Shown one piece after another: positions 1 to 62,121 of a DNA stretch of 64,000 nt; position 1 is the first letter of the stretch, and the number at the start of each line of letters is the position of its first letter. Below the pieces are notes generated by a model that was not told the origin of the DNA, searched no databases, and saw only the letters and a program-made list of their open reading frames with translations. The position numbers and the translations under genes were made by a program. Source of the stretch: Clostridia bacterium (GTDB taxonomy: Bacteria > Bacillota > Clostridia > UMGS1883 > UMGS1540); the NCBI GenBank assembly GCA_045590195.1, contig JAZNQN010000044.1, forward strand, positions 19,186 to 83,185. Direction: 5' to 3'.

Positions 1-495
1 GATGAAGAACAAAACAAGCTCTACATCAGAACAAACATATACAGAGATAACGGAGAATTAAAAGAAGGTAAACCTAAAACGGACGAGGGCGAAAGATGCA
101 TCATACTGCCAAAGGCAACTGCGGATATGTTAAAACAGCGAAGGCGGATATCAAAATGGATATTCCCGAACCTGACAACTCCTGGATTACCCATAGCACC
201 GGAGGCAGCCTACAGAAAAGCAAAACTGATTCTAAAAAGTCTGAATCTGCCGAACATATCCTTCCATGACCTACGACACACCTTCGCAACACATGCCATA
301 GCAAGCGGTGTAGATGCAAAAACACTATCAACGATACTTGGACATACAAACCCAAGCTTCACCCTCGACACATACACACATGTAACAACAGATATGCAAC
401 AAAAAGCATCAAATATAATAGAAATCTTTATGGAAGATATACTCGGAAAGGAGATGAAACCATGGCAAGACGAAAAAGCGGACAAGGAACAGTAA
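1..495 (+). CDS. Tyrosine site-specific recombinase (phage/ICE-type integrase), C-terminal portion. The 5' end is cut by the window edge.
   Basis: The frame is open from nt 1 with no start codon in the window. The C-terminal catalytic region carries the motifs HDLRHTFATHAIASG...LGH and a terminal Tyr-containing segment. It is paralogous to the next ORF. Confidence 0.8.
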   Translation, partial: DEEQNKLYIRTNIYRDNGELKEGKPKTDEGERCIILPKATADMLKQRRRISKWIFPNLTTPGLPIAPEAAYRKAKLILKSLNLPNISFHDLRHTFATHAIASGVDAKTLSTILGHTNPSFTLDTYTHVTTDMQQKASNIIEIFMEDILGKEMKPWQDEKADKEQ

Positions 496-1889
496 GACTC
501 AGAAAAGATGGTCGATGGGAAGGCAGAATTGTAATCGGTTACGATGAAAATGGTCTTCCTAAGACAAAAAATGTAACAGCCAAGACAAAAACGGAATGTA
601 TTGAGAAGCTGGAAAAGCTCAAAGATGAAACAGGTTTTATCCGCAGAGAAAAAGTGCATAGCAGAATGACCTTCGGTGAATGGATGGACTTCTGGTATCA
701 GAATTACTGCAAAATGCGAATAAAGGAATCAACTCAAGAGGGCTATGAAACAAGAATATATAATCATATAATCCCCAAGATAGGAAAAATTCCCCTAAAT
801 GAATTGACTCAAAATGACCTGCAGAAATTCTACAACAGCCTTAAACAAGACGGCAGACTGAGATATCGGGATACGCTCGGCGAAGGACTGTCCGACAGGT
901 TCGTGCGAAGCTGCCATGCAAACTGCAGAACTGCACTTCAAAAGGCAACGGATGACAGACTTATAAAAAAGAATCCTGCAATAGGCTGCAAGATACCACC
1001 TAAAAAGTCAAGAGAGATGCAGGTGCTGACGCCGGATGAAATTAAAAGGTTTCTTATACAAGCAAAATATGACGGATTCTTCGAAATCTTCTTAGTAGCC
1101 TTATCTACAGGCTTACGGCGAGGAGAAGATATGGCACTAAAATGGGAAGACTTAAACCTCGATACAGGAGAACTAAAGGTGCGAAGACAAGTCAAACGGA
1201 CAAAAGGCAGATTGGTCATAACAGAGCCAAAGACAGAAGAATCGGTAAGAACGATAATACTACCCAAAAGCCTTGTAAACATCCTGAAGGAATATAAGGA
1301 AACAATAGACTCAGAGTGGATGTTCCCATCACCAAAAGTTGAAGGGATGCCAAGAGATCCCTCAGCAGTATATGGAATGATGCAGGTAATATTAGAAAGA
1401 GCAGAATGTAAAAAGCTTCGATTCCACGATCTCCGCCACACCTTCGCAACCACATCGGTAGCAAACGGAATGGACATCAAAACCTTATCCACCATCCTCG
1501 GACATGTATCAAGCAAAACAACACTTGATATATACCTGCACAGCACCGAGGAAATGAAGAAAGAAGCGGCTGAAAAGATTAACGCCCGATTCAACAAGGA
1601 TACAAACGGTAGCGAAGAAACAATCACAGAAGAACAAGAGAAGCCTCCGCAAGCCAAATTTGAGCCTAAAAAGGGCAAGATGAGAAAGCCCGGCACAGGA
1701 TGCATCAGTAAGATAAACGACCACCTATACGAAGGAAGATACTCGCCAAAGGATGACTACGGCAAACGAATGGCAAGAAACATATATGCACCGACAAGAG
1801 AAGAATGTGAAGAAAAGCTCGGCATACTGATAAAGGAAATGAAAGCCGAAATCGCAGAACAAAAAGCAAAGCTCAAAAATGCAAAATAA
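462..1889 (+). CDS. Tyrosine integrase of the Tn916-Int type, with an AP2-like arm-binding domain at the N-terminus and a second related copy at the C-terminus
   Basis: 475 aa. The N-terminus (RKDGRWEGR...TKTECIEKL) resembles the Tn916 Int arm-binding fold. The catalytic box is R...HDLRHTFAT...LGH...Y. A C-terminal extension repeats the N-terminal pattern (YEGRYSPKDDYGKR...TREECEEKL). Confidence 0.85.
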   Translation: MARRKSGQGTVRLRKDGRWEGRIVIGYDENGLPKTKNVTAKTKTECIEKLEKLKDETGFIRREKVHSRMTFGEWMDFWYQNYCKMRIKESTQEGYETRIYNHIIPKIGKIPLNELTQNDLQKFYNSLKQDGRLRYRDTLGEGLSDRFVRSCHANCRTALQKATDDRLIKKNPAIGCKIPPKKSREMQVLTPDEIKRFLIQAKYDGFFEIFLVALSTGLRRGEDMALKWEDLNLDTGELKVRRQVKRTKGRLVITEPKTEESVRTIILPKSLVNILKEYKETIDSEWMFPSPKVEGMPRDPSAVYGMMQVILERAECKKLRFHDLRHTFATTSVANGMDIKTLSTILGHVSSKTTLDIYLHSTEEMKKEAAEKINARFNKDTNGSEETITEEQEKPPQAKFEPKKGKMRKPGTGCISKINDHLYEGRYSPKDDYGKRMARNIYAPTREECEEKLGILIKEMKAEIAEQKAKLKNAK

Positions 1890-2357: not shown

Positions 2358-2443
2358 TAACAACCTAAATTATTATAGCACAGAGAATACATAAAGTCAA
2401 ATATTTTTTTAAAGGTGCAACAATTTGTTGCACCTTTAATCAG

Positions 2444-4204
2444 TTATTCCGCAATCATATATTCGCCAATAAACAATATTTCTTCGTTTGTATTATCACG
2501 AATTACAAAAGTAAATGGTTTATCAAATTTTACTTCGATTGGCTCTGTTGGCGCAGAGGCAGCACCTGCCATCATTATTGCAGTTACAGCTGCAGCTTCA
2601 GTTCCTTTTTCGTCAACATTTATATACGTTTTATGAAGTATTTTATCTATGTACATATTAAACTCGTCTTTTTTATCAAACATCTTTTCAAATTCAGCCT
2701 CAAAGGCATCAAAGGCCTTAATTATACCGGCATTTTTCAAAATATCGTTAAGCTCTATTGATGTTTCGATTTTGAATTTCGGCACATAAAGATGAATTCT
2801 TTGACCTTTCATTCTGCCAAGACCAATAATATTTTCCAGTTCAGCTACCCTATTCTCATAATCTGTCATCATTATATACATACTTATATTTACATTATCA
2901 CGATGAAAATCGGCCACAGAGCCATCATCATTTAAAGTGTGAGTAGTACTCTCATAAGGTAACTCTATTACAGTTGTTTTATCATCAGCAAAATACATAA
3001 AATTAGCTGTGTTTTGCATAAATTCAGCTTTTGAAACTGTTCCGTCGAAATTATAAAAATTATCTTTAGAGGTTAATTCTTCTTCAAATTCATTATTCCA
3101 GTTTCCGCTGAAATATACCGCATTTATAAGTGCGGCCCAAAAATCAGCGCTATTTATAATTTCAGGAATTTTTTCGTTTGTTTTATCCGAAACCCAGTTA
3201 TTTATTGTTTTAACAGCATTTTTTCTGTCAACCTCTTTTGCCTCAGCACCATAATAGGAATACACTGTGTCTTTATATGTTCTTGAAAAATTTTTGGTGC
3301 TTTCATCCTTATTAAGCCAAATAGAATTTGCAATACTAAGCTTAACAGCTTTTGCCTCTAAATAGCTTTCAATTAAAGACTTTGCAGTTTCATTATACTG
3401 AGCTATATCATAAATTTCGGCAACTTCGCTTATTTCTTTATAAGTTTCGCCCTCTGCCCCGTTTGCTGCAAGCGCAAGAGCCATTTTAATTGAAAGCGGC
3501 GAAAACATATAGTTACTATTTTTCGGCATACCGCTATTTAAATCATCTGCAAAATAACTTTTGGCAGGTGTACCGCCAAATAGTATTCCTTCAAAATCAT
3601 TTTGTGTGTAAAGTCCCTTATCAATTAGCTTTTTATAAAGCATTTGTCCGTCAGCACATTTTGATGTAAGAGCGCTGCGGCAAAGCCTTGTTACATCACT
3701 TCTTAAAAGACTGTAATTTCCTTCAACAACGCTTTTGGTAAAATTATTGTTTATTACATCTGCAGCTTTTCCAATTTTAAGAGCGTTTTCAATTGTAACT
3801 TCAGAATATCCCATAACAGTCAATAAAATTTTTAAAAACTCTTTTCCCGTAACAGTTCTTTGCGGCTGAAAAGTAGTAGCTGATGTACCGTCAATATAGC
3901 CTGCTATGTAAAATTTTTCTATAACATCGGCCGCCCAGTGGCCTTTTACATCTTCAAACGGGAAATCGGCCATAGCTATGTCACTAAATGCTACTCCTGT
4001 TGTGCGCCAGATGAAAGTTAGCGCTTCTGCACGAGTTACCTCTCTCTCCAGTTCATAACCAATATCTGTACCCTTTAAAATGCCAAGTATTGCCATACCT
4101 TCTGCACCGGTATCAATAGGTATTTCTTCCCTTGGTAAGATTGCTGCCGAAGCAGATACGAAAAGCATTAAGGCAGCTAACAATAAAGCAAATATTTTTT
4201 TCAT
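2444..4204 (-). CDS. Secreted serpin (serine protease inhibitor) with N-terminal SLH cell-wall anchoring domains
   Basis: There is a signal peptide (MKKIFALLLAALMLFVSASA). SLH-like repeats match the pattern F.DV..HWA...I..G...GY..G..F.P. The serpin core carries the motif FSPLSIKMALALAANGA, the hinge EKGTEAAAVTA and the C-terminal signature KPFTFVIRD...ILFIGEY. The RBS is AAGGAGG. Confidence 0.75.
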   Translation of the reverse strand: MKKIFALLLAALMLFVSASAAILPREEIPIDTGAEGMAILGILKGTDIGYELEREVTRAEALTFIWRTTGVAFSDIAMADFPFEDVKGHWAADVIEKFYIAGYIDGTSATTFQPQRTVTGKEFLKILLTVMGYSEVTIENALKIGKAADVINNNFTKSVVEGNYSLLRSDVTRLCRSALTSKCADGQMLYKKLIDKGLYTQNDFEGILFGGTPAKSYFADDLNSGMPKNSNYMFSPLSIKMALALAANGAEGETYKEISEVAEIYDIAQYNETAKSLIESYLEAKAVKLSIANSIWLNKDESTKNFSRTYKDTVYSYYGAEAKEVDRKNAVKTINNWVSDKTNEKIPEIINSADFWAALINAVYFSGNWNNEFEEELTSKDNFYNFDGTVSKAEFMQNTANFMYFADDKTTVIELPYESTTHTLNDDGSVADFHRDNVNISMYIMMTDYENRVAELENIIGLGRMKGQRIHLYVPKFKIETSIELNDILKNAGIIKAFDAFEAEFEKMFDKKDEFNMYIDKILHKTYINVDEKGTEAAAVTAIMMAGAASAPTEPIEVKFDKPFTFVIRDNTNEEILFIGEYMIAE

Positions 4205-4254
4205 ATTATACCTCCTTTTTCCTTTTTAGACGAGCAGTTTTAAAAAAAGTTCCA

Positions 4255-4296
4255 AAAAACCCAAAAAATCCGCCAAGGCGGATTTTTTGGGTTTAG
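4255..4296 (-). terminator. Terminator downstream of htrA
   Basis: GC hairpin CCAAAAAATCCGCC...GGCGGATTTTTTGG flanked by A and T runs. Confidence 0.5.
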
Positions 4297-4318
4297 GGAT
4301 ATATCTATGAAAACGTGG

Positions 4319-5638
4319 TTATTGCGCTTTTGTAGTATCTTCGCCAAGAACAACCGAAACATCCATTGCAGAGCCGTTTCTGTTGATTTTAAGAGTTATA
4401 GTGTCGCCTGCTTTGTGTGAATCGCGTATTTCATTAAGGCCTTCGGAGCTTGTAACTTCCTGTCCGTTACAGGAAATAATTATATCACCCTTCATAATTC
4501 CGGCTTTTGCAGCACCTGTTCCCTCTGTAACTTCTACAACAAAAAGTCCTTTTGCAGGGAGATTGTAATAATAAGCTTCCTGCTCGGAAACATATCTTAC
4601 TGAAAGCCCAATAAGCGGACGGCCTTTTACATAGCCAAAGTTAATAAGGTCTTCAATAATAGGTTTTGCATCACTTATTGGAATTGCAAACCCAAGGCCT
4701 TCAACCCCGCTTGAAGAAACCTTAACCGAGTTAATGCCGATAACTTCGCCAAATTCGTTAACAAGCGCTCCACCGCTGTTACCAGGATTAATTGCAGCAT
4801 CTGTCTGAATCATTTTATAGGTTCTTCTGTCAACAGTAACAGTTCTGTTAACGGCACTTATAATACCCTGAGTAAGCGAGCCTGCAAACTCAAGCCCTAG
4901 TGGATTACCGATTGCAACAACTTTTTCGCCTGCTTCAAGATTTGTGCTTTCACCAAAAACAGCCGCAGGAAGATTTGTTTCCTCTATTTTAATTACCGCA
5001 AGGTCGGTTTTTTCGTCGCCACCAATAAGTTTTGCCTCATATTCTTTTCCTGTATTTAAAACAACTTTAACCGAGGTTGCACCTGCGATTACATGGTAGT
5101 TTGTAACAATGTATCCGTTCTCTGTAAAAATAATACCTGAGCCACTACCTGATGAAACATCTGAGAAAAAGCCCTGATACTGAACTGTGCTGACAATTCC
5201 AACTACTGATGGGCCAACAAGTTTTCCAATATCAACTGTTGACAACACTTTTCTGTCGTCTTTATTATAAGTTACGGGCTGTGCATTTGTTTTGTTTTCT
5301 TCGATTTGTGAAGTTCCAAATGAAAACTGCTGCATATTTCCGTTTTGCATAAGGCCGCTGATTACAGGCGATACAAGCGAAAAAATGAGAGCTCCCATTA
5401 TTGCGCTGACCGTTGCAACAAGCCAGGTTTTGGGCTTTTTATGCTTTTTCTCTCTTTTTATATTCTGCTTATAAGAAGAAACAACCACAGGATAAACATC
5501 ACCTTTTTTAAATCTGTAAGAAGTATCTTCATCTATTGTAAAGAAAGATTGTTGATTTTCATTTTCCAATGTTTCTGCATCAAAAGCCATATTTGCTTCT
5601 TCTTCAGAAAAATTGTTGTTTTCAAAATTTTCTTGCAT
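4319..5638 (-). CDS. htrA: HtrA/DegP-family serine protease with a trypsin-like domain and a PDZ domain, membrane anchored
   Basis: It has a His-box (TNYHVI), an Asp-box (DLAVIKIE) and a Ser-box (GNSGGALVN), a C-terminal PDZ domain and an N-terminal transmembrane segment. The start was moved to the ATG at 5638 (MQENF...), which has an AAGGAGAG RBS. The ORF-track start at 5677 lacks an RBS. Confidence 0.85.
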   Translation of the reverse strand: MQENFENNNFSEEEANMAFDAETLENENQQSFFTIDEDTSYRFKKGDVYPVVVSSYKQNIKREKKHKKPKTWLVATVSAIMGALIFSLVSPVISGLMQNGNMQQFSFGTSQIEENKTNAQPVTYNKDDRKVLSTVDIGKLVGPSVVGIVSTVQYQGFFSDVSSGSGSGIIFTENGYIVTNYHVIAGATSVKVVLNTGKEYEAKLIGGDEKTDLAVIKIEETNLPAAVFGESTNLEAGEKVVAIGNPLGLEFAGSLTQGIISAVNRTVTVDRRTYKMIQTDAAINPGNSGGALVNEFGEVIGINSVKVSSSGVEGLGFAIPISDAKPIIEDLINFGYVKGRPLIGLSVRYVSEQEAYYYNLPAKGLFVVEVTEGTGAAKAGIMKGDIIISCNGQEVTSSEGLNEIRDSHKAGDTITLKINRNGSAMDVSVVLGEDTTKAQ

Positions 5639-5723
5639 AGTTTCTCTCCTTTGTTTTATTTGATTTAATTTTAACACTTAATTATTATCAATCTATGAAC
5701 AAACTTAAAAAAAAATTTAAAAC

Positions 5724-7139
5724 CTAGGCTTTTTTTAGTTTAAACTTAAATCTTGCCCACCTGTCTTTTTCGCTTTCAACTAAAATTTTTTCGCCGTGAT
5801 TTGCCAAAATGCTGTGAACCATAAAAAGCCCTAATCCCATACCATTTTTATCATAGCTACGAGATTTATCTGACTTATAAAATCTTTCAAACACATGGCT
5901 TATTTCCTCAGGGGTAATACCAATGCCAGAATTTTCAACAGAAATATCAACCTTTCCTCCCGAAGCTCGCAATACTTTAATTTTTATATATCCGCCTTCA
6001 AAATTAAATTTAATTGCGTTATCGATAAGGTTAGTCATAACCTGTGAAATTGCATCTTTATCGGCGAAAACAAATTCGTTTTCATTTTCAAATTCAATAT
6101 CAACATCAATTTTTTTCTCGTTAATCTGATTTTCAAATCTTAATATAGTTATTCTTACAAGCTCGTTAATATCAAAGCTTCTTGGCGAAAGCTTCATAGT
6201 GCCCGATTCAATTCTGGAAAGGTCTAAAAGTTTTCCAACAAGCCTTGCAAGACGTTTTGTTTCATCAAGAACAATTTTCAGGTATTTATCCTTATCTTCT
6301 TCTGAAATAGTTCCATCAAGAATCCCCTCAACAAAACCTGAAATTGTAGTCATAGGCGTTCTAAGTTCGTGAGAAACGTTTGAAATAAAATCAGAACGCA
6401 TATCTTCAAGGTTTTTTAAAGAATCGGTCATTTTATTAAAGTTTTCAGCAAGTTCCGCAATATCAGTATTCCCTTCTGCCCGAACTTTCAAATCAAAATT
6501 CCCTTTTGCTATTTCTTTGGAAATTTTATTCATTTCCATTATCGGCCTTGATATTCTTTTAGAGTAAAAATAAAGCATAACAACAACGCCGAAAAAAACG
6601 ATAGTTATTGTTGTAAGAAAGGTTTTAACAAAATAATACTTTTGCTGATTAACAACCGGAGATGGAACAGACAAAAAAGTTGCCCCTACAATAGAGTTAT
6701 TCCCTTTAAGAGGAATTCCAACCGTTAAATATGTCCCCTTAAAAAGGCCGTTCATATTACCAATCTGCAAAAAATCGTTACCATCTAAAACCTTTTTGGC
6801 AATTTTATCTTCAGGAACTCTGTCTCCAAAATGCTTCGATGCATTGTTGCTGGTTAACAGATTTCCATACCTGTCCATAATATACACAACGCCGTTTACT
6901 TTGCTTGCAGAATCGTTTAAGCTTTTTTTATAAAGCTTTTCAACAGTAGGCGTTCTGTTTGACAGATAAAATATCGTAAGGTCATTTATTCTTTCTGCTT
7001 CATCTCTTAAAATGTCGCCTTTTTCATTTATAAAAAAGTCGCCTAAAAAGCCAAATAAAACAGTTCCCGTAACAATTAAAAGAACAAGCGTTATAATTAC
7101 ACTTACAAATATAATTCTCGAGTAAATTGTTTTAAGCAT
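5724..7139 (-). CDS. Sensor histidine kinase with two transmembrane segments, an extracytoplasmic loop, and HAMP, HisKA and HATPase domains
   Basis: The H-box is SHELRTPMTTISGF and the G-boxes are GMGLGL. Together with the adjacent response regulator it resembles CssS/VicK-type kinases. Confidence 0.8.
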   Translation of the reverse strand: MLKTIYSRIIFVSVIITLVLLIVTGTVLFGFLGDFFINEKGDILRDEAERINDLTIFYLSNRTPTVEKLYKKSLNDSASKVNGVVYIMDRYGNLLTSNNASKHFGDRVPEDKIAKKVLDGNDFLQIGNMNGLFKGTYLTVGIPLKGNNSIVGATFLSVPSPVVNQQKYYFVKTFLTTITIVFFGVVVMLYFYSKRISRPIMEMNKISKEIAKGNFDLKVRAEGNTDIAELAENFNKMTDSLKNLEDMRSDFISNVSHELRTPMTTISGFVEGILDGTISEEDKDKYLKIVLDETKRLARLVGKLLDLSRIESGTMKLSPRSFDINELVRITILRFENQINEKKIDVDIEFENENEFVFADKDAISQVMTNLIDNAIKFNFEGGYIKIKVLRASGGKVDISVENSGIGITPEEISHVFERFYKSDKSRSYDKNGMGLGLFMVHSILANHGEKILVESEKDRWARFKFKLKKA

Positions 7140-7838
7140 TTACTTCACCTCAAACTTATATCCTACTCCCCACACAGTTTTAAGCGACCAGCCTTCATCA
7201 ACGCCTTCAAGCTTTTCACGAAGCCTTTTTACATGAACATCAACCGTTCTTGAATCGCCAAAATAATCAAAATCCCAAACTTCACCCAGCAGCTGTTCTC
7301 TAGTAAAAACGCGGTTTGGATGAGATGCAAGAAAATATAAAAGCTCGAGTTCCTTTGGCGGAACATCAATTTCTTCTTCCTGAACGCGAAGCTCGTAATT
7401 GTTAAGGCTTATGTAAAGCCCGGGAAGGGAAACCTCGCCATTATCGGCTTTGTCAGCTTTATTTTCAAATCTTCTTAAAACTGCCTTTATTCTTGCAGAA
7501 AGCTCTTTTGCCTCAAAAGGCTTAACAATGTAGTCATCCGCTCCCATTTCGAGCCCTAAAACTTTGTCAAATGTTTCGCCTTTGGCAGTAAGCATAATTA
7601 TCGGAACATTACTCTCTGCCCTGATTTCTCTGCAAACTCTTATTCCATCGATTTTAGGAAGCATAATATCAAGCACTATAAGGTCAGGCGATGCTGATTT
7701 AAACTTTTCTATTGCCTCTTCGCCATCGTATGCAAACAAGGTTTCATAACCTTCTTTTTTAAGATACAAACCTATAAGGTCGCAAATATTTTTATCATCG
7801 TCAACAACCAAAATTTTCGTTTCGTTCATTAAATTCAC
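7140..7838 (-). CDS. OmpR-family response regulator
   Basis: The receiver domain (VVDDD...D54 region...KP) and a winged-helix C-terminus (VWGVGYKF) are present. Its stop is adjacent to the kinase start. Confidence 0.85.
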   Translation of the reverse strand: MNLMNETKILVVDDDKNICDLIGLYLKKEGYETLFAYDGEEAIEKFKSASPDLIVLDIMLPKIDGIRVCREIRAESNVPIIMLTAKGETFDKVLGLEMGADDYIVKPFEAKELSARIKAVLRRFENKADKADNGEVSLPGLYISLNNYELRVQEEEIDVPPKELELLYFLASHPNRVFTREQLLGEVWDFDYFGDSRTVDVHVKRLREKLEGVDEGWSLKTVWGVGYKFEVK

Positions 7839-8017
7839 TCCTTTTATTTTATTCTAACATAATTTGTTAATAAAATGTAGGTGTATTTTTTAAGTAAAAG
7901 TAAATTTTTTGTAAACTACTCTATTATTATATATAAATATGCAATAAAAATCAACACATTGACAAAATTTATAAGATGTTGTAAAATTGTCGTATAATAA
8001 AAACAAAGGGGTTTTTT

Positions 8018-9112
8018 ATGAATACTATAACTTCTGAACCTAAAATAGAAAAAAAGCGTATGCTTTTTATTGATATTCTTAAAACTATCGCAATTTTCGG
8101 CGTTTTAATAATTCATTTCACACCGAGAGCTTATACTGAATATTCTCCTTATTCATTTCAGTATATATTTACTGTTTTTATAAACTGCCTGGTACGCTTT
8201 AGTGTACCTGTTTTTGTAATGTGCAGCGGTACACTTTTTCTTGATGATAACAAATCAGTTTCAGTAAGGAGTATTTATAAAAAATACATACCACGTATAG
8301 TTATAGCCCTTTTCATTTTTGCGGTAATTTACGAAGGGTTTTCAATTTGTTGTTCTTTTCTTAATACGGGCGTTTGGGATACTGCTTTTTTTGTCACTGC
8401 CTTGAAAAACCTTTTAACCTTTAACACCCATTTTCACTTGTATTATCTTTACATAATTATAATTCTTTATGCTCTTACGCCAACAATTAAATTGTTTTTA
8501 AAATCTGCCAGGAAAAGAGATATTGAATATATAATTTTGTTTATTTTTATAACAAGCATTTTTCTGCCGTTTCTCAGAAACTTTTATCCTCTCGACCGCT
8601 ATTTCGGAGGTATGACTTTTCAGTACTCTTTAAATCTTGTATACAGCCTGATTGTTTACTACATACTTGGATACTATTTAAACAAATTCCCTCCAGAAGG
8701 CAAGAAATTTATTCTTACAATTGCACTTGGTATACTTAGTGTTTTTATAACATTTTTCGGCACAACAAACCGCCTTATTGAAAGCGGCTCTCTTTCCGAA
8801 ATTTATCTGCAGGGAACTTCGCCAACTGTATTTTTTATGTCGACAGCGCTGTTCTCTTCAGCAAAAAAACTAAGCAAAAATATCAGTGAACATTCTTTTG
8901 CATCAAGAATTTTTAAATTTATTTCAAAAGTAAGCTTTACAATTTATCTTGTACACGAGTGTTTTAATATTTTGTTTGAAAAACTTGGATTTACTATTTT
9001 TTGTATGAATCCTCTTATTTCTCTCCCTCTTTTGCTCATTTCAAACACAATACTTTCATCACTTGCATATCTGATTTTAAGAAAAATTCCAGGCATTAAA
9101 AGTATTTTGTAA
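8018..9112 (+). CDS. Acyltransferase-3 family integral membrane protein
   Basis: About ten transmembrane helices with an N-terminal pattern (ILKTIAIFGVLIIHF) typical of PF01757. Confidence 0.6.
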   Translation: MNTITSEPKIEKKRMLFIDILKTIAIFGVLIIHFTPRAYTEYSPYSFQYIFTVFINCLVRFSVPVFVMCSGTLFLDDNKSVSVRSIYKKYIPRIVIALFIFAVIYEGFSICCSFLNTGVWDTAFFVTALKNLLTFNTHFHLYYLYIIIILYALTPTIKLFLKSARKRDIEYIILFIFITSIFLPFLRNFYPLDRYFGGMTFQYSLNLVYSLIVYYILGYYLNKFPPEGKKFILTIALGILSVFITFFGTTNRLIESGSLSEIYLQGTSPTVFFMSTALFSSAKKLSKNISEHSFASRIFKFISKVSFTIYLVHECFNILFEKLGFTIFCMNPLISLPLLLISNTILSSLAYLILRKIPGIKSIL

Positions 9113-9293: not shown

Positions 9294-10196
9294 ATGACAA
9301 AACCTGTTCTTCGCAGCGTTAACGGGAAAAATCTTGTTTTTGCAGTTTCTGATAGTCTTTGCGTTTCAGAAGATATTCCAACACCTTCTCATACGCTTTG
9401 TACTATGCTAAAAAAATATCACGATAAGCTTGCTGAAGCAAATGTTGAACAGCTTGATGCAGTAATGCGTGATTTTGCAACAGATTTAAACGGAGAAATA
9501 AGCGTTATTGCTTCTGCTTCATCTTATAAAGACTACGCTTCCTCTCTTTCTCTTCTCACTGTAAACGGCGGCGTTGCAACAGTTACAAATGTTGGTAATA
9601 CTTCAGCTTTTTTAATGCGTGATGGTCAGCTTACTGAGCTTGCCTCGCCAAATGTTGCAAAATTGCATAAGGCTATCGTTCCAGGAAACGGAAATATGAT
9701 TGGAAATTTCAGAAGTGGCGAAACTTTAACGCCCGACCTTTCCGATTCATACGAAATTGTAAAAAACGATGTTTTCCTTCTTTGCTCTGATGGGCTTACT
9801 TCAGCACTTAATCAGCAAAGAATTTCATACATACTTTCACTTGATTTATCTGATGAGCGCCTTGCTACAAGGCTTGTAAGCGAAGCCCTCGCCCGCGGTG
9901 CAAACGATGATATAACTGTAATGATTATAAGAAATGGAGCAACACCTTATTCTTCGCCCAAGAAGAGAAAAACTGCTGTATCGCTTTGTTTTGGGGTTAT
10001 TTTACTTGCAGTTTTTGTTGCATTTATAACTTCATCATTCAAATCCTGTTCCAAAAAACCTGAAATTTCAAATGAAGGAGCAACTATCACAGAAACTGCA
10101 TCGCCGAAGCCTGATGAGTTTATGACTTCAGAAAACGATGCTTCTCCCACCCCGGTACCAACAGACGATTTTATTCTGCGAACACCAAAACCATAA
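9294..10196 (+). CDS. PP2C-like Ser/Thr phosphatase-fold protein with a C-terminal transmembrane anchor. Its metal-binding motifs are degenerate, so it may be a pseudophosphatase.
   Basis: The C-terminal PP2C signature is present (FLLCSDGLTS...ARGANDDITVMII). The N-terminal GxxRxxNED and DGxGG motifs are replaced by NGKN and SDSLCVSE. Confidence 0.45.
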   Translation: MTKPVLRSVNGKNLVFAVSDSLCVSEDIPTPSHTLCTMLKKYHDKLAEANVEQLDAVMRDFATDLNGEISVIASASSYKDYASSLSLLTVNGGVATVTNVGNTSAFLMRDGQLTELASPNVAKLHKAIVPGNGNMIGNFRSGETLTPDLSDSYEIVKNDVFLLCSDGLTSALNQQRISYILSLDLSDERLATRLVSEALARGANDDITVMIIRNGATPYSSPKKRKTAVSLCFGVILLAVFVAFITSSFKSCSKKPEISNEGATITETASPKPDEFMTSENDASPTPVPTDDFILRTPKP

Positions 10197-51411: not shown

Positions 51412-53109
51412 TTATTCCTCCGATTTTTTCGCATAGTTCACATGTAAAAGTTTATGAACTTTACCTTTAATAATATTGTTATAAAGTGACGAAACAATTG
51501 GGTTTTCTTCTGAACGACGTATGCTTAAGAGTCTGTCAGATTTATAAAGTCCGCTCTTTCTGGCAGCAATCTCGTGCTGCATTGCAAATGGCTGACCGCC
51601 ACCATTTATACATCCGCCAGGGCAAGCCATAACTTCAATAAAGTCAATCTGTTCGCCGTCTTTTACGCGCTGAAGAACTTTTTCAGCATTTGCAAGACCG
51701 CTTACAACTACAATATGAAGTTCTCTTTCTCCATACATAAGTTTAAATTCTTTAATGCCATCAAGGCCACGCTGACCGCAATCTGCAATAGAAAGAAGTC
51801 CGCTTCTTGATTTATTTGCAGCAACACGGCGAAGTACAGCTTCTGTAACACCACCTGTTACACCAAATATTACACCTGCACCTGAAATAGTACCAAATGG
51901 CATATCGACAGCTTCAGGCTCTAAGGTATCAAACATAATACCTGCTTCTTTAACCATTGAAACAAGTTCCTGAGTTGTAATAACTGCATCAACATTAGGC
52001 TGACCGTCCATTTTGAACTCATCTCTTGCAGCTTCAAACTTTTTAGCTGTACAAGGCATTACTGCAACATGGAACATTTTTCTTGAAGCTTCTTTTGCCT
52101 GGTCTTTCAAAATTGAAGCCATCATCTGCATTGGGCTGCGGCAAGTTGATACATTAGGAAGAAATTCAGGGAATTTCTTTTCGCAGAACTGAATCCAGCC
52201 AGGGCAGCATGAAGTAATAAGTGGAAGATTTTCGCCTTTTTCAAGTTTAGTAAGAAATTCTTCACTTTCTTCCAAAACAGTTAAATCTGCTCCGAGAGAA
52301 GTATCATAAATTTCATCAAATCCCATACGATGAAGAGCGGCAACAATTTTACCCATTACATCTTCCCCGTCGCGAACACCAAGTTCTTTACCAAGTGCAA
52401 CTCTTACCGCAGGAGCAACCTGAACAGTTGTTTTAACTTCAGGGTCGCTTATTGCTTTCCAAACGGGAGCAATATTATTTTTAACAACAAGAGCACCTGT
52501 TGGACATACTGCAACACACTGACCACAGCCAACACATGGGCTTTCTGAAAGTGGTTTATTAAACGCAGTGCTGATTGTCATATTAGAGCCACGGTATGCA
52601 AAGTCGATAGCGCCAACATTCTGAACCTCGTTACACATTCTCACACAGTCGCCGCAAAGAATACATTTGCCTGTATCTCTTGTAATGCATACGGAAGACG
52701 TATCTTCATCTTTTGTTGAAACTGCAGTATTAGGGAAACGAACGCCTTCAATATTAAAGCGCATTGCCAAATCCTGCAATTTACATTTTGCGTTGTTCTC
52801 ACAGGTTGTACAGTCGCGGCAATGGTTAGCAAGAAGAAGTTCGAGAATATTTTTTCTGTATCTTCTAAGGCGCTCTGTATTTGTTTTTATGTTCATACCT
52901 GCACGAGGAGGTGTTGAACAAGCGGCATCAAGTCCGCCTCTTTCGTTTTCTACCATACACATACGGCATGCACCGTAAACCGAAAGCTCGGAATGATAGC
53001 AGAATGTAGGCATTTTTACGCCTGTTTTATTTATAAGTTCAAGAAGATTTTTCTCTCCGTTAATTTCAACGGGGATACCGTCGATTGTCAAATACTGTTT
53101 CTCAGTCAT
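51412..53109 (-). CDS. hydA: [FeFe]-hydrogenase catalytic subunit HydA, set 1 of the HydABC type
   Basis: It has an N-terminal plant-type [2Fe-2S], ferredoxin clusters, and canonical H-cluster motifs TSCCPGW, MPCTAKKFE and EVMACPGGCINGGG. Confidence 0.85.
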   Translation of the reverse strand: MTEKQYLTIDGIPVEINGEKNLLELINKTGVKMPTFCYHSELSVYGACRMCMVENERGGLDAACSTPPRAGMNIKTNTERLRRYRKNILELLLANHCRDCTTCENNAKCKLQDLAMRFNIEGVRFPNTAVSTKDEDTSSVCITRDTGKCILCGDCVRMCNEVQNVGAIDFAYRGSNMTISTAFNKPLSESPCVGCGQCVAVCPTGALVVKNNIAPVWKAISDPEVKTTVQVAPAVRVALGKELGVRDGEDVMGKIVAALHRMGFDEIYDTSLGADLTVLEESEEFLTKLEKGENLPLITSCCPGWIQFCEKKFPEFLPNVSTCRSPMQMMASILKDQAKEASRKMFHVAVMPCTAKKFEAARDEFKMDGQPNVDAVITTQELVSMVKEAGIMFDTLEPEAVDMPFGTISGAGVIFGVTGGVTEAVLRRVAANKSRSGLLSIADCGQRGLDGIKEFKLMYGERELHIVVVSGLANAEKVLQRVKDGEQIDFIEVMACPGGCINGGGQPFAMQHEIAARKSGLYKSDRLLSIRRSEENPIVSSLYNNIIKGKVHKLLHVNYAKKSEE

Positions 53110-53113
53110 TTTC

Positions 53114-54988
53114 TCAAACCTCCTTTATAGCCTTGAATGCACAAGCATCAATACAGCTACCGCAACGAATACATTTTGAAAGGTTAATTGTAAATGGTTC
53201 CTTAATTTTTCCTTCGATAGCTTCAACAGGACACTGACGGGCACATTTTGAGCAACCTTTACAAAGCTCAGGGTCAATAACAATTGTTTTAAGTTTCTGA
53301 CATTCACCCGCTGGACAACGCTTGTCGTAAATATGAGCTTCATATTCATCACGGAAGTTTTTAATTGTACTTACTACCGGAGAAGGAGCACTTTTGCCAA
53401 GTCCGCAAAGAGCTGTAGCCGAAATTGTATCAGCAAGCTCGAGAAGGAGTTCAATATCTCCATCCTGACCTTCGCCTGCGACAATTCTTTCAAGAATCTG
53501 AAGCATTCTCTTTGTACCTTCACGGCAAGGAACGCATTTACCACAGCTTTCGTTCTGTGTAAAGTTCATAAAGAATCTTGCAACCTCTACCATACAGGTA
53601 TTTGAGTCCATAACAACAAGTCCGCCGGAGCCTATCATAGCTCCAACCTTTTTAAGTGTATCAAAGTCAAGAGGAAGGTCTAAATGTTCTTTTGTAAGAC
53701 AAGCACCTGAAGGGCCGCCTATCTGTACGGCTTTAAATTCGCCGTCGCCTTTCATACCGCCACCGATATCAAAAATAATCTCGCGGAGAGTTGTTCCCAT
53801 AGGAACTTCGATAAGGCCTGTATTTGCAATGTTACCTGTAAGAGCAAAAGCTTTTGTGCCTGCACTTCCCTCTGTTCCGATACCGAGATACCAGTCTGCG
53901 CCACGGTTTATAATTTCAGCAACGTTTGCATATGTTTCAACATTATTAAGTACTGTTGGTTTATCAAAAAGACCATGTTCAACAGTTCTTGGAGGTTTAA
54001 CTCTCGGGAAACCACGTTTACCTTCGATTGAAGCAGTAAGCGCACTACCTTCGCCACAAACAAACGCACCTGCACCACGGCTGATGTGCATTTTAAACGA
54101 AAAGCCTGTTCCGAGAATATTTTCGCCAAGAAGGCCTAGTTCTTCTGCCTGAGTTATTGCATTTTTAAGTCTGTCAACAGCGAGAGGATATTCAGCACGA
54201 ACATATATGTAACCTTCACATGCGCCACAGGCAACACCTGCAATCATCATACCCTCAAGCATTCTGTGAGGGTCACCTTCCATAATACTTCTGTCCATAA
54301 ATGCACCGGGGTCACCCTCGTCACCATTACAAACAACATATTTAATAGGCTCTTTCTGGCGTTTAACCTGTTCCCATTTTCTTCCGGCAGGAAATCCGCC
54401 GCCCCCACGTCCGCGAAGGTTTGATTTACTGATTTCAGATACAATGTCATCAGCAGTCATATCAAAAAGTGCTTTTTCAAAAGCGGAATAACCACCAATG
54501 GCAATATATTCACGAATTGATTCGGCATCAATTTTACCGCAGTGTTCCAAAACGATACGGGTTTGCTGTTTATAAAAAGGAATTTCATCCTGTTTTTTGT
54601 ATGAAACGCCATCTTTTTTGCAGGCAAGGCGGTCAATGGGTTCTCCTTTAAGAACTGTTTTTTCAATAATTTCTTCACAGTCTTCAACTTTTACTTTTGT
54701 GTAAAGCCAACCCTGTGGGTCGATTCTGAGAAGTGGGCCCATTTCACAAAAACCATGGCAACCGCTCTTTTTAAGGCCTATGCTTTCATCGTGGGGATCA
54801 ACTTCAAGCTCCACTGCAACTTTAATGCCTCTTTCATCACAAAGTTCTTTAAGTCTGTCATAAATTTTAAGTGAGCCACCGGCAACGCAACCTGTTCCGG
54901 CACAAACAATGATTTTTTCGGTTTGTAGTTCATAAGACTTTTTCACTTCTTCACGAAGCTTCATAAAATCTTCTCTGTTTTTAAGCAT
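53114..54988 (-). CDS. hydB: NuoF-like NAD(P)H-binding flavoprotein subunit HydB, set 1
   Basis: It has an N-terminal Trx-like [2Fe-2S], FMN/NADH-binding Gly-rich motifs (GRGGGGFP), a NuoF-type [4Fe-4S] and a C-terminal 2x[4Fe-4S]. Confidence 0.85.
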   Translation of the reverse strand: MLKNREDFMKLREEVKKSYELQTEKIIVCAGTGCVAGGSLKIYDRLKELCDERGIKVAVELEVDPHDESIGLKKSGCHGFCEMGPLLRIDPQGWLYTKVKVEDCEEIIEKTVLKGEPIDRLACKKDGVSYKKQDEIPFYKQQTRIVLEHCGKIDAESIREYIAIGGYSAFEKALFDMTADDIVSEISKSNLRGRGGGGFPAGRKWEQVKRQKEPIKYVVCNGDEGDPGAFMDRSIMEGDPHRMLEGMMIAGVACGACEGYIYVRAEYPLAVDRLKNAITQAEELGLLGENILGTGFSFKMHISRGAGAFVCGEGSALTASIEGKRGFPRVKPPRTVEHGLFDKPTVLNNVETYANVAEIINRGADWYLGIGTEGSAGTKAFALTGNIANTGLIEVPMGTTLREIIFDIGGGMKGDGEFKAVQIGGPSGACLTKEHLDLPLDFDTLKKVGAMIGSGGLVVMDSNTCMVEVARFFMNFTQNESCGKCVPCREGTKRMLQILERIVAGEGQDGDIELLLELADTISATALCGLGKSAPSPVVSTIKNFRDEYEAHIYDKRCPAGECQKLKTIVIDPELCKGCSKCARQCPVEAIEGKIKEPFTINLSKCIRCGSCIDACAFKAIKEV

Positions 54989-55466
54989 TGTTTATCTCCT
55001 CTCTGAGTTTTTTCAAAAGCTCTGATGCTTTATCCGGTGTCATTGCAGAATATACAACATCGTTTACTGTAAGTACCGGAGCAAGACCACAAGCGCCGAG
55101 ACATGATACTGTTTCAAGTGTAAAGTTTAAGTCGTCGGTAGTTTTTTTGCTTTCGCTAAGTCCAAGTTCACTGCGAAGACGCTCCAAAATCGGAATGGAA
55201 CGGCGAACATGACAAGCTGTTCCGTCGCATATTTTTATTACATATTTTCCCTTTGGTTCAAGAGAAAAGTTTTCGTAAAATGTTGCTACGCTGAAAATCC
55301 TAACTTCAGGAATGTTAAGCTGTTTTGCAAGATGTGGAAAAATATCTTTTGGCAAGTAATGATATTCTTCCTGAATTTCCTGCAAAATTGCGATAATTGC
55401 CTGTGGATTTTTGTCGTATTTATCGACTATTTTATCTACGATTGCAAAATCAAACTGTTCACTCAT
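54981..55466 (-). CDS. hydC: NuoE-like [2Fe-2S] subunit HydC, set 1
   Basis: Trx-like fold with CDGTAC...C...CLGAC. Confidence 0.85.
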   Translation of the reverse strand: MSEQFDFAIVDKIVDKYDKNPQAIIAILQEIQEEYHYLPKDIFPHLAKQLNIPEVRIFSVATFYENFSLEPKGKYVIKICDGTACHVRRSIPILERLRSELGLSESKKTTDDLNFTLETVSCLGACGLAPVLTVNDVVYSAMTPDKASELLKKLREEINNA

Positions 55467-55488: not shown

Positions 55489-56898
55489 TTATTTATTCTT
55501 AAGGTATTCATCGATTGCCTTGGCAGCAGTTTTACCTGCGCCCATAGCAGATATAACCGTTGCAGCACCTGTTACTGCATCGCCGCCTGCATAAACTGCA
55601 TCGCGTGATGTAAGGCCATCTTCATTTACAATAATTCCGCCTCTGTTATTAACTTCAAGGCCCTTTGTAGTATCTTTTATAAGCGGGTTAGGCGAAGTAC
55701 CAATAGACATTACAACTGCATCAACCTCTAACTCATATTCTGAACCCGGAATTTCTACAGGACGTCTTCTTCCTTTTTCATCAGGTTCGCCAAGTTCCAT
55801 TTTCATAAGGCGAATACCTGTTACAAAACCGTTTTTAGGATCTCTTGGATCCTCAGGATTGTTATAACCCAGAATTTCAACCGGGTTTCTGAGAAGCTGA
55901 AAATCGATTCCCTCTTCTTCAGCATGTTCAACTTCTTCCCTTCTTGCAGGAAGTTCTTCCATTGAACGACGGTAAATAATATAAACCTTCTCAGCTCCAA
56001 GTCTTAAAGCAGTTCTTGCAGCATCCATAGCAACATTACCGCCGCCTACAACTGCAACACGGCCACCTTTCATAATAGGTGTGCTGCCATCTTCACGATA
56101 AGCTTTCATGAGATTGCTTCTTGTTAAGAATTCGTTTGCAGAATAAACGCCTTTAAGAGATTCGCCGGGAATTCCCATGAAATTTGGAAGGCCTGCACCG
56201 CTGCCTACAAAAACAGCTTCATAGCCCATATCAAAAAGCTCGTCGATTGTAAGGGTTTTACCGATTACAACATTAGGCTCAACATTTACGCCAAGTTCTT
56301 TTAAAGTTTCAACTTCTTTAGCAACTATTGCCTTTGGAAGACGAAATTCAGGAATACCATAAACAAGTACACCGCCTGCTGTGTGAAGTGCTTCATAAAC
56401 TGTTACGTCGTAACCTTTTTTAGCAAGGTCACCTGCACAGGTAAGGCCTGAAGGGCCGCTACCAACAACGGCAACTTTGTGGCCGTTAGACAATGGTTTT
56501 TCAGCCTTTTCCTTGGCGTTTTCATTATGCCAGTCAGCAACAAAACGCTCAAGTCGGCCAATGCCTACAGGCTCAAACTTAATTCCAAGAGTACATTTAC
56601 TCTCACACTGTGTTTCCTGTGGGCAAACTCTTCCGCAAACCGCAGGAAGTGAAGATGATTTTGAAATAGACTGATATGCACCTTCAAAATCGCCATTTTT
56701 AATATGAGTAATAAAATCAGGAATATCAATATTTACAGGACAGCCTGCAACGCAAGGCTGGTTTTTACAATTTAAGCATCTTTCAGCTTCTCCTACAGCC
56801 ATTTCCTGAGTATAACCAAGAGCAACTTCATTGAAGTTATGGCCCCTCACATCAGCAGGCTGTGTTGGCATTTCATGCTTTTTAGGATTTATTGCCAT
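55489..56898 (-). CDS. nfnB: NfnB / GltD-like subunit (SudA-like; NADH-dependent reduced ferredoxin:NADP oxidoreductase large subunit)
   Basis: It has N-terminal 2x[4Fe-4S] (CLNCKNQPC...CP), two dinucleotide folds (VAVVGSGPSG and VAVVGGGNVAMD) and is about 470 aa. It is 22 nt upstream of hydC. Confidence 0.75.
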   Translation of the reverse strand: MAINPKKHEMPTQPADVRGHNFNEVALGYTQEMAVGEAERCLNCKNQPCVAGCPVNIDIPDFITHIKNGDFEGAYQSISKSSSLPAVCGRVCPQETQCESKCTLGIKFEPVGIGRLERFVADWHNENAKEKAEKPLSNGHKVAVVGSGPSGLTCAGDLAKKGYDVTVYEALHTAGGVLVYGIPEFRLPKAIVAKEVETLKELGVNVEPNVVIGKTLTIDELFDMGYEAVFVGSGAGLPNFMGIPGESLKGVYSANEFLTRSNLMKAYREDGSTPIMKGGRVAVVGGGNVAMDAARTALRLGAEKVYIIYRRSMEELPARREEVEHAEEEGIDFQLLRNPVEILGYNNPEDPRDPKNGFVTGIRLMKMELGEPDEKGRRRPVEIPGSEYELEVDAVVMSIGTSPNPLIKDTTKGLEVNNRGGIIVNEDGLTSRDAVYAGGDAVTGAATVISAMGAGKTAAKAIDEYLKNK

Positions 56899-56923: not shown

Positions 56924-57772
56924 TCAGGCATTTTTGAAAAGATTGCAAGCTTCTTCATATGCGTGACGCTCAAAATCTGCATACATTCTGCCTCTTGACA
57001 TTGCCTCGTCAAAATCGATTTCGTAGGCATTAAATTCAGGCCCGTCAACACATGCAAACTTTGTAACCTTTTTGCCATCCTGGTTCAAAGTAAGTCGGCA
57101 ACCGCCGCACATACCAGTTCCGTCGATCATAATAGGATTCATTGAAGCTGTTACAGGAACACCAAAAGGTTTGGCAGTTAGAGTAACAAACTTCATCATA
57201 ATAAGCGGACCAATTGTGATGATAATGTCAAATTTTTCTCCGCCTTCAAGCATTTCTTTAAGCGGAACAGTTACGTTACCGTGACGACCATAAGAACCGT
57301 CATCAGTCATTAAAATAAGGTTGTCCGAGCATTCTCTGAACTCATCTTCCAAAATTACAAGATTTTTATCTCTGAAACCGATAATGCTTGTAACTTCAGC
57401 CCCAAGGCGATGAAATTCCTGCGCAACAGGCATAGCAATAGCACAGCCAACGCCTCCGCCTACGATACAAACTTTTTTAATACCTTCAGTATGAGTTGCT
57501 CTTCCAAGAGGACCAACAAAATCTTCAATGAACTCACCTTCGTTTTTCTGACCGAGTTTTGCAGTTGTTCCTCCAACTATTTGAAAAATTATTTTAACTG
57601 TGCCATCTTCCTTGTTGCAACCTGCAACTGTAAGCGGTATTCTTTCGCCTTCGCTGTCGACACGTAAAATAATAAACTGACCTGGTTTTGCCTTTGCTGC
57701 AACTAACGGAGCTTCAATTTCCATCTGGGTTACAGTTGGGTTTAACACTCTTTTACGCACAATTTTGTACAT
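56924..57772 (-). CDS. nfnA: NfnA / SudB-like small subunit (FNR/PyrK-like FAD protein with a [2Fe-2S])
   Basis: About 280 aa with an FNR-like fold and a C-terminal Cys cluster (CGGCRLT...C). Confidence 0.75.
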   Translation of the reverse strand: MYKIVRKRVLNPTVTQMEIEAPLVAAKAKPGQFIILRVDSEGERIPLTVAGCNKEDGTVKIIFQIVGGTTAKLGQKNEGEFIEDFVGPLGRATHTEGIKKVCIVGGGVGCAIAMPVAQEFHRLGAEVTSIIGFRDKNLVILEDEFRECSDNLILMTDDGSYGRHGNVTVPLKEMLEGGEKFDIIITIGPLIMMKFVTLTAKPFGVPVTASMNPIMIDGTGMCGGCRLTLNQDGKKVTKFACVDGPEFNAYEIDFDEAMSRGRMYADFERHAYEEACNLFKNA

Positions 57773-59711: not shown

Positions 59712-59730
59712 AATTATCTGCTCCCCTCTC

Positions 59731-61611: not shown

Positions 61612-61632
61612 ACCTCCAAGTTCAAATCTGGT

Positions 61633-62121
61633 TTATTCCATATACTTTTTCAAGATGCCTTCAACTTCGTCAACGGTAAGTTTTCCGTAAACGTCTTCGC
61701 CAACTGTCATAACAGGAGCAAGACCGCAGGCACCGATACATCTTGTAGCATCGATAGAGAAAAGACCGTCGGGAGTACATTCTCCAACTTCTATTCCCAA
61801 AATTTCCTTAACCTTCTCCAGAATAAGATTTGAACCTTTTACATAACATGCAGTACCAAGACAAACACCTATCTGATATTTGCCCTTTGGATTAAGTGAA
61901 AACTGAGCATAAAAAGTTACAACTCCATAAATTTCAGCCAAAGGAATATTAAGTCCTTCTGCAATCATTGTCTGCACTTCGATTGGCAGATATCCATAAA
62001 TTTTCTGCGCTTCGTGCAAAACAGGAATAACTGCGCCGGGCTGATCTTTGTGCATTTCAATAACTTCGTTAAGCTTTGCAGCCTGTTCACTTGTTCCTGC
62101 AAATGGTATTGTTTGTGCCAT
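61633..62121 (-). CDS. hydC: NuoE-like [2Fe-2S] subunit HydC, set 2
   Basis: CLGTAC...C...CIGAC, Trx-like. Confidence 0.85.
   Translation of the reverse strand: MAQTIPFAGTSEQAAKLNEVIEMHKDQPGAVIPVLHEAQKIYGYLPIEVQTMIAEGLNIPLAEIYGVVTFYAQFSLNPKGKYQIGVCLGTACYVKGSNLILEKVKEILGIEVGECTPDGLFSIDATRCIGACGLAPVMTVGEDVYGKLTVDEVEGILKKYME

Follow-up and report, generated by a model that had tools for sequence, protein, structure and literature searches.

A stretch of 64,000 nt from a contig of a Clostridia bacterium (JAZNQN010000044.1), called the window in the following, contains close to one end four genes for a response regulator, a sensor histidine kinase, a protease of the HtrA family, and a serpin with an N-terminal S-layer homology (SLH) module. 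The serpin is proposed here to be a wall-tethered suicide inhibitor that belongs to an envelope-stress regulon of an extracytoplasmic function (ECF) sigma factor and shields the cell surface from serine proteases with a preference for a small residue at P1, and the probability of this reading is estimated at roughly 0.6. According to this proposal, the protein would be exported by the Sec pathway and subsequently held in the cell wall in a non-covalent manner by its three SLH repeats. The gene would be driven by its own ECF-type promoter (GGAAC-N16-CGTCTAA) as a monocistronic unit between two terminators, and the serpin is probably induced by a cell-envelope stress signal because transcription would start from such a promoter. 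A serine protease cleaving after Ala548 would be covalently trapped, with the serpin as the suicide substrate, and wall and surface proteins would be protected from elastase-, subtilisin-, or HtrA-like proteases, with the host or neighboring microbes as their most likely source. Only in one narrow lineage would the serpin unit have come to lie behind the terminator of htrA. That the protein binds the wall, that it is inhibitory, and which proteases it traps are predictions made from sequence and models.

Domains, reactive loop, and relatives of the serpin

The serpin starts with a signal peptide of the classic type, MKKIFALLLAALMLFVSASA, which ends with ASA, in agreement with an earlier note on this DNA that had described a serpin with a signal peptide. 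The Pfam model Serpin matched residues 222 to 583 with an E value of 1e-83, and the Pfam model SLH matched residues 82 to 123, which is repeat 2, with an E value of 5e-8. Repeats 1 and 3 remained undetected by Pfam in separate N-terminal segments even at E values up to 10. A profile made from the first 215 residues of 13 family members matched the SLH domain of Sap from Bacillus anthracis (6bt4 with an E value of 1e-21, 3pyw with 5e-20) and also SbsB. The AlphaFold model of residues 22 to 215 reached a predicted local distance difference test (pLDDT) value of 92.5 and a predicted template modeling (pTM) score of 0.90. When this model was compared with the Protein Data Bank by Foldseek, only the three-SLH domains of Sap and SpaA were returned with a probability of 1.00 over 159 to 186 columns, and the next matches followed at an E value of about 1. 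Because the profile and the structure both matched three-SLH domains, the SLH module is regarded as complete although divergent. The profile search, thus, agreed with the earlier note in that the N-terminal repeats are SLH repeats; they form, however, the N-terminal third of the protein and not its N-terminal half.

In repeat 1, the motif TRAE is located at residues 57 to 60, with an invariant R58, and T57, A59, and E60 are kept in at least 90% of 60 sequences. Judged from its sequence, the module probably binds a pyruvylated secondary cell wall polymer. No second SLH protein was encoded in the window. The mature N terminus of the SLH-serpins, L-x-R-E-E-I-P (residues 22 to 29, positions 4117 to 4141 of the window), precedes the first SLH helix and is conserved, and its residues I28 and P29 are also kept in at least 90% of 60 sequences.

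The model of the full-length protein (pLDDT of 85) contained two domains, the secondary structure of a serpin, and a flexible linker. Apart from the signal peptide, the stretches of low confidence were the linker residues 210 to 215 and the loop residues 539 to 552, and the reactive loop is taken to be modeled as exposed because the pLDDT of the latter residues was below 50. The earlier note had assigned an inhibitory-type hinge to the serpin, and the hinge was indeed found as EKGTEAAAVTA with E532 at P17, G at P15, T at P14, and AAA at P12 to P10. The pattern E-K-G-T-E-A-A-A-V-T is kept in most of 60 aligned family members, and 55 of these 60 possess a glycine at P15. Counting from E532 as P17 places Ala548 (positions 2561 to 2563) at P1 and Ala549 at P1′, so that the small residue predicted at P1 is there; the loop positions were additionally aligned to conserpin carrying the loop of alpha-1-antitrypsin. 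In the family, P1 is A, S, or T, with G in three of the aligned members. The nearest serpins with a solved structure, conserpin, tengpin, and miropin (E values of 1e-41 to 1e-45), are all inhibitory. As judged by these features, the C-terminal domain is a canonical serpin of the inhibitory type with an exposed reactive loop.

The P1 site had also been described as the kind preferred by HtrA proteases. The small P1 residue stands, but HtrA is not singled out by it because elastase- and subtilisin-like proteases fit equally well (PMC8201313, PMC5301203). Another interpretation of the loop, a signal-peptidase-type AXA site formed by A-G-A at P3 to P1, was dropped because P3 is not conserved across the family. 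Acquisition of the serpin gene as part of a horizontally transferred island was also considered; the composition gives no signal of an island because the GC content of 0.348 is inside the range of the neighboring genes, 0.31 to 0.39.

The fusion of SLH repeats to a serpin is not a peculiarity of the window. A word-indexed search yielded 778 matches, and the best 120 of these were all full-length proteins of about 555 to 650 aa with 41 to 98% identity that came from Clostridia assemblies. Pfam annotation with both domains was available for 113 of these best 120, under names such as “hypothetical” or “SLH domain-containing.” The assemblies of the relatives included those named Clostridia, Oscillospiraceae, and Ruminococcaceae. 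A search of 1.84 billion representatives of clusters formed at 50% identity indicated at least 46 clusters, with about 46 of the best 150 representatives being collinear from the N to the C terminus. Ten of ten other representatives tested carried SLH and Serpin domains, including variants of 700 to 1037 aa. Among the longer variants P0275, P0268, and P0260 are a protein of 937 aa composed of SLH, PBP_like_2, and serpin, and two proteins, of 1037 aa and 704 aa, that carry additional sequence at the N terminus. No paper describing an SLH-serpin fusion was found in the literature. The statement of the earlier note that such fusions are uncommon is, therefore, true for the literature but not for sequence space, with its 46 or more clusters at 50% identity. 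The SLH-serpins are a large family of gut and digester Clostridia, all members of which are uncharacterized.

An ECF-type promoter motif upstream of serpin genes

The htrA and serpin genes are separated by 114 bp. An intrinsic terminator of htrA is located in this spacer, with a folding energy of −28.2 kcal/mol and a z-score of −5.76, and none of 200 shuffled sequences folded as well. Hairpins are present at the same place in L005 and L007, two loci closely related to the window, and in three further loci that contain htrA but no serpin gene (L092 to L094), inverted repeats followed by T runs were recognized downstream of htrA by eye and without folding. The terminator upstream of the serpin gene and the ribosome-binding site of the serpin itself, both reported in the earlier note, were thus recovered, and another hairpin follows the serpin stop codon (Table 1).

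When the spacers of the window, L005, L007, and L091 were aligned, a conserved TGGAACTTTTT...CGTCTAA appeared between the terminator and the ribosome-binding site, ending 21 nt ahead of the ATG. Published ECF promoters possess GGAACTT at −35 and CGTC at −10 with a distance of about 16 nt (PMC3397946), and the motif of the serpin gene agrees with these elements. GGAAC-N15-18-CGTC has a single match in the window (4253 to 4229), with 0.3 matches expected. The motif is situated 49 to 68 nt upstream of the ATG of SLH-serpins in 10 distinct loci with quite different neighbors, and GCAAC variants are present in L004 and L011.

The serpin loci comprised flanks of 6 to 10 kb on each side of the serpin gene. 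As a background for the motif and for the proximity of HtrA, 160 of them originated from family-alignment scans of genome and metagenome contigs, in which the matches listed were mostly generic serpins. Ninety serpin loci (1.38 Mb) contained 36 plus-strand matches to the motif, 19 of which were within 310 nt upstream of a serpin start, where 0.35 would be expected; for the 16 distinct cases of upstream motifs, the Poisson P was 2e-21. Because the gene is flanked by terminators and preceded by the conserved motif, the serpin is regarded as monocistronic with its own ECF-type promoter, and from the sequence we infer that this promoter is used by an ECF sigma factor.

Within 310 nt upstream of the start, the motif also occurred at serpin genes without a matching SLH N terminus, in 7 of 75 loci (0.29 expected, P of 3e-8) and in 11 of 80 loci of an independent metagenome set (0.45 expected, P of 2.5e-12). 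These serpins come from other phyla (Chloroflexi, Phycisphaerae, Agathobaculum, and others). Most of their motif copies are about 40 to 120 nt before the start, and a few are closer or inside the predicted open reading frame (ORF). An inspection by eye, not a domain search, of small-ORF starts beside seven motif-bearing serpins of other phyla gave no ECF sigma factor. The searchable literature gave no general connection of bacterial serpins with ECF sigma factors. Two other genes are preceded by the ECF-type motif, the gene for a wall-polymer ligase of the LCP family (LytR_cpsA_psr) beside the serpin in L003 (motif at 7202 to 7226, minus strand) and the gene for a putative lipoprotein of 552 aa directly upstream of the serpin in L015 (motif at 8121 to 8145, plus strand). 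As judged by this motif, both genes may be further members of the regulon.

Table 1. Features of the serpin-htrA region (positions in the window) and loci in which the ECF-type motif precedes a serpin gene
Feature	Position	Strand	Basis or content
SLH-serpin ORF, 586 aa	2444-4204	-	signal peptide 1-20, SLH ~22-205, linker ~206-216, serpin 217-586
Three-repeat SLH module	3590-4141	-	profile match to Sap, model, Foldseek
Reactive-centre loop, residues 532-552 (P17 E532 to P4′ P552)	2549-2611	-	hinge counting, alignment
Predicted ECF-sigma-type promoter of serpin: −35 GGAAC, 16-nt spacer, −10 CGTCTAA	4226-4253	-	motif and conservation
Ribosome-binding site GGAGG, 6 nt ahead of serpin ATG	4211-4215	-	sequence reading
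Hairpin after serpin stop, end of monocistronic unit	2409-2439	-	RNA fold, −18.8 kcal/mol, z −7.9
Intrinsic terminator of htrA, 17-bp stem then U run	4251-4294	-	RNA fold
HtrA/DegP-family serine protease, membrane-anchored, one PDZ	4319-5638	-	Pfam Trypsin_2 and PDZ
htrA promoter region: direct-repeat-like box TTTGTTCATAGATTGATAATAAT, then extended −10 TGTTAAAAT	5668-5703	-	conservation
Sensor histidine kinase	5724-7139	-	Pfam HAMP, HisKA, HATPase_c; order transmembrane-loop-transmembrane ahead
Response regulator, OmpR/PhoB-type	7140-7829 (listed ORF 7140-7838)	-	Pfam Response_reg and Trans_reg_C
Motif-bearing SLH-serpin loci			window, L001/2, L003, L005/6, L007, L008/9, L010, L013, L014, L091
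Non-SLH motif-bearing serpin loci, first set			L020, L027, L038, L056, L072, L074, L080
Non-SLH motif-bearing serpin loci, metagenome set			L096, L107, L114, L115, L122, L127, L140, L157, L158, L166, L172

The htrA module and alternative explanations

According to the ORF map of the window, four ORFs in the same direction on the minus strand fill positions 2444 to 7838, with the limits that had been assigned to them before. The likely start of the response regulator gene, read from the sequence, is the ATG at 7829 with AGGAG just ahead, and its orthologue in L007 is 86% identical. The start of the kinase gene directly abuts the stop of the response regulator gene. Hydrophobic segments at residues 1 to 37 and 169 to 193 of the kinase leave an extracytoplasmic loop of about 130 aa between them, so that the Pfam domains and the two segments agree with the kinase described in the earlier note. 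The same is true for the membrane-anchored HtrA protease. This protein has 439 aa counted from the ATG at 5638, is 100% identical to the database protein P0121, and possesses a single transmembrane segment at residues 71 to 97. The motifs of the catalytic triad are all present (NYH182V, D212LAV, and GNS288GG), and the protein aligned to the structures of DegP and DegQ with an E value of 1e-57. Because the scores of the NCBIfam HtrA models were below the equivalog cut-offs, it is assigned to the family and not to a named orthologue.

The two-component system had been called “CssRS-like.” This holds for the arrangement beside htrA. With respect to orthology, the best NCBIfam matches of the response regulator (YycF, MtrA, and PieR) were all under the cut-off, YycF with 262 bits versus 340, and the kinase aligned over its full length to the PieS model with 196 bits versus a cut-off of 850, with WalK and MtrB also below their cut-offs. 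The label is an analogy of arrangement only.

The box TTGTTCATAnATTGATAATA and an extended −10 site are located upstream of htrA in seven of seven orthologous loci, including three without a serpin, and the box is likely to be the site of the adjacent response regulator, as judged by its sequence and position. It is not conserved upstream of the serpin gene. A TTTACA-N5-TTTAC repeat in either orientation was observed upstream of the response regulator operon in five of six loci that hold this region (7880 to 7930 in the window), and both this repeat and the htrA box are candidates for the site of the regulator. Directly after the htrA stop codon, GTTTTCATAGAT (4303 to 4314) equals the first half of the htrA box; it is absent in the relatives. 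This half-box is taken as chance or a remnant because it is unconserved and upstream of the terminator. The set of response regulator, histidine kinase, and htrA is present in the window, L007, L091, L092, L093, and L094 and was partly captured on the short contigs of L005/6. L092 to L094 encode HtrA proteins with 61 to 68% identity, and in these loci no serpin gene follows the set. This set is a module that has a promoter box of its own and is both older and conserved far more widely, and the response regulator is a part of this module and not of the serpin unit.

The four genes had been interpreted as a cell-surface protease/inhibitor pair under envelope-stress control. In such a model, the serpin would be the dedicated inhibitor of the neighboring HtrA, and the two-component system would raise both proteins under secretion or heat stress, with the serpin keeping HtrA in check at the interface of membrane and wall. 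Several points agree with this interpretation. The genes are adjacent and co-directional not only in the window but also in L005, L006, L007, and L091, with varied genes downstream, and both proteins are extracytoplasmic. HtrA proteases prefer aliphatic, small P1 residues, and the alanine at P1 is compatible with this preference. Human HTRA1 engages the loop of alpha-1-antitrypsin at P1-P1′ and forms a complex, but it cleaves this serpin and is not inhibited by it (PMC4203740). A serpin of Bifidobacterium breve is under the control of an adjacent two-component system, by which it is induced by proteases (cited in PMC8012564).

The distribution of the genes points in the other direction. A serpin gene is situated behind htrA only in the closest clade, with serpins that are at least about 70% identical (L005/L006, L007, and L091), whereas SLH-serpins with 43 to 51% identity (L001 to L004, L008, and L010) are in unrelated contexts, for instance between argG and a gene of the AraC type, and HtrA was absent within 8 kb of these serpins. 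In a tblastn comparison of the HtrA from the window with the serpin loci, HtrA was near the serpin in 3 of 90 loci and, among 80 further loci from metagenomes, in 1. Within the flanks of 6 to 10 kb, HtrA was thus missing from the six distant SLH-serpin loci and from almost all of the 160 background loci. The module, thus, occurs without the serpin and the serpin without the module, the two genes are divided by the strong terminator and by the ECF-type promoter of the serpin, and in the relatives no htrA box is found ahead of the serpin gene. Moreover, the loop sequence is much alike in family members that are adjacent to HtrA and in those that are not, and a 2025 review of HtrA in Gram-positive bacteria mentions no protein inhibitor. 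A pair under two-component control is not borne out by the narrow-clade adjacency, the terminator, the separate ECF-type promoter, and the unshared htrA box, and a dedicated inhibitor of HtrA is improbable; a functional partnership of serpin and HtrA is possible but not supported. The envelope-stress control claimed in the earlier note may nevertheless hold via an ECF sigma factor rather than via the adjacent two-component system. A variant of this idea would be recruitment of the serpin in the close lineage as a brake on HtrA, with htrA answering to the two-component system and the serpin to an ECF sigma factor as two separate envelope-stress pathways. This is also quite improbable. If true, the serpin would be the first known case of a natural protein that inhibits a bacterial HtrA, and together with HtrA it would form the first serpin-protease pair that belongs to the surface of a Gram-positive cell.

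The target may be another endogenous protease instead, a secreted serine protease such as a subtilisin-like enzyme or a protease of sporulation or germination that is encoded elsewhere in the genome, the activity of which would be restricted by the serpin to limit self-damage to wall proteins rather than to fend off foreign proteases. ECF regulons commonly serve envelope homeostasis, and the bacterium is a spore former with YunB encoded in the window. PinA, a cellulosomal serpin, inhibits subtilisin-like proteases (cited in PMC5301203). No protease except HtrA, however, was near the gene in the SLH-serpin loci examined, and an endogenous target of this kind is considered unlikely. A different question is whether the GGAAC/CGTC motif functions at all. 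If it did not, the serpin would be the fourth gene of the two-component unit and would owe most of its expression to read-through at the htrA terminator. The co-directional genes with 114 bp between them would allow this, and a cognate ECF sigma factor was found neither in the window nor in the flanks of related loci. A stem of 17 bp with U runs and −28.2 kcal/mol would have to be passed, however, and the motif is kept with the same spacing and at a similar distance from the ATG even where the upstream gene is divergent, such as in L001 and L010. Expression mainly by read-through is, therefore, very improbable.

The proposal of a wall-tethered inhibitor in an ECF regulon has also to face a number of observations that weigh against it. 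TRAE is retained in SLH repeat 1 only, and repeats 2 and 3, with TGKE and RSD, respectively, are divergent. The assignment of P1 to Ala548 comes from counting from the hinge only, and some bacterial serpins, for example miropin, use other bonds (PMC8201313). A gene for an ECF sigma factor was not recognized by a regular-expression search of the ORFs of the window or by Pfam in 20 further ORFs of the window, nor was one among the ORFs downstream of the other motif copies. Because no cognate sigma factor gene was found, the promoter assignment depends on the motif and its conservation alone. The host as the source of the proteases is a guess made from the occurrence of the relatives in gut and digester assemblies. 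Finally, in the close clade the serpin gene stays behind htrA while the downstream genes differ in three contexts, being tRNA-Pro and an integrase in the window, lysA in L005, and TSCPD/tRNA_edit in L091. This retained linkage is mild evidence for selection keeping it, in a narrow range of relatives.

Further genes surround the region. Divergently from the response regulator gene, a membrane acyltransferase (Acyl_transf_3; 8018 to 9112, plus strand) is encoded, followed by a membrane-anchored PP2C-like phosphatase (9294 to 10196, plus strand), and both neighbors are envelope-related. On the other side, downstream of the serpin gene, a tRNA-Pro(CGG) is located at 2079 to 2155 on the minus strand, and its first 40 nt from the 5′ end recur with 95% identity at 2318 to 2357, behind a promoter-like site, TTGACT-17-TATAAT (2372 to 2400). 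A tyrosine integrase gene (462 to 1889, plus strand) converges on the tRNA gene, and a second integrase with 45% identity is represented by its C-terminal part at 127 to 495. The arrangement resembles one or two mobile elements that were inserted at tRNA-Pro immediately behind the serpin gene and extend beyond the end of the window. Far from the serpin, two tandem gene sets for HydA, HydB, and HydC, of the type known from electron-bifurcating [FeFe]-hydrogenases, are located on the minus strand at 51412 to 55466 and 57975 to 62121, with two ORFs between them, a GltD/NfnB-like oxidoreductase (55489 to 56898) and one at 56924 to 57772.

Meaning and comparison with known systems

The SLH-serpin family shares an ECF-type promoter motif, and in two independent samples a similar motif is situated ahead of about 10% of the bacterial serpin genes that are unrelated to it. 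This leads to the hypothesis that serpins are an output of envelope-stress signaling and act at the cell surface. An inhibitor of elastase-type proteases displayed on the surface would bear on the survival of commensals in a protease-rich, inflamed gut. A partnership with HtrA would matter more if it were true, but it is unlikely on the evidence at hand. Both the family of fusions and the link between serpins and ECF sigma factors are new and testable, albeit not very surprising.

Serpins of gut bacteria, the siropins of [Eubacterium] siraeum, saburopin, and the serpin of Bifidobacterium longum, are likewise signal-peptide serpins with an inhibitory hinge from Firmicutes and Actinobacteria of the gut type (PMC8201313). 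Their known targets are elastase-like proteases with a preference for a small P1, including those of the host, whereas the inhibition by the window serpin is predicted; moreover, no SLH module is described for the gut-commensal serpins in PMC8201313, and the window serpin has a wall anchor of three SLH repeats. An ECF-type promoter has not been reported for them in the searchable literature, while the window serpin carries a candidate for one. In B. breve (Alvarez-Martin et al. 2012), a serpin gene beside a two-component system was proposed to protect against environmental proteases (cited in PMC8012564). Unlike in B. breve, the two-component system of the window is tied to htrA, and the serpin has a separate terminator and a separate predicted promoter.

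A serpin of Clostridia fused to a surface tether and proposed as a shield is also known from PinA of Clostridium thermocellum and the Doc-serpin of Ruminococcus flavefaciens, and such dockerin-tethered serpins were suggested to protect cellulosomes or surface assemblies (PMC5301203). Their tether is a dockerin on a cohesin scaffold, whereas that of the window serpin would be SLH on a wall polymer, and these proteins differ in domain order and family and belong to cellulolytic specialists.

With respect to the neighboring module, MprAB-PepD is another example of a two-component system next to a gene of the htrA type. In CssRS-HtrA/HtrB of Bacillus subtilis, PieRS, and YycFG-HtrC, an OmpR-type regulator and a kinase with two transmembrane segments are likewise encoded immediately upstream of a membrane-anchored HtrA, and the conserved box upstream of the htrA gene in the window suggests direct control as in systems of the CssRS type (PMC12826053). 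None of the known two-component/htrA systems includes a serpin, according to the 2025 review of Gram-positive HtrA.

The promoter motif of the serpin gene has the same GGAAC(TT)/CGTC architecture as the promoters of sigma-E of Escherichia coli, sigma-W, -X, and -M of B. subtilis, and Tt-RpoE1 (PMC3397946). The products of ECF envelope-stress regulons act in the envelope, as predicted for the window serpin, and the searchable literature contained no serpin as a member of an ECF regulon. By its SLH anchor and its ECF-type promoter motif, the window serpin stands apart from the bacterial serpins described so far.

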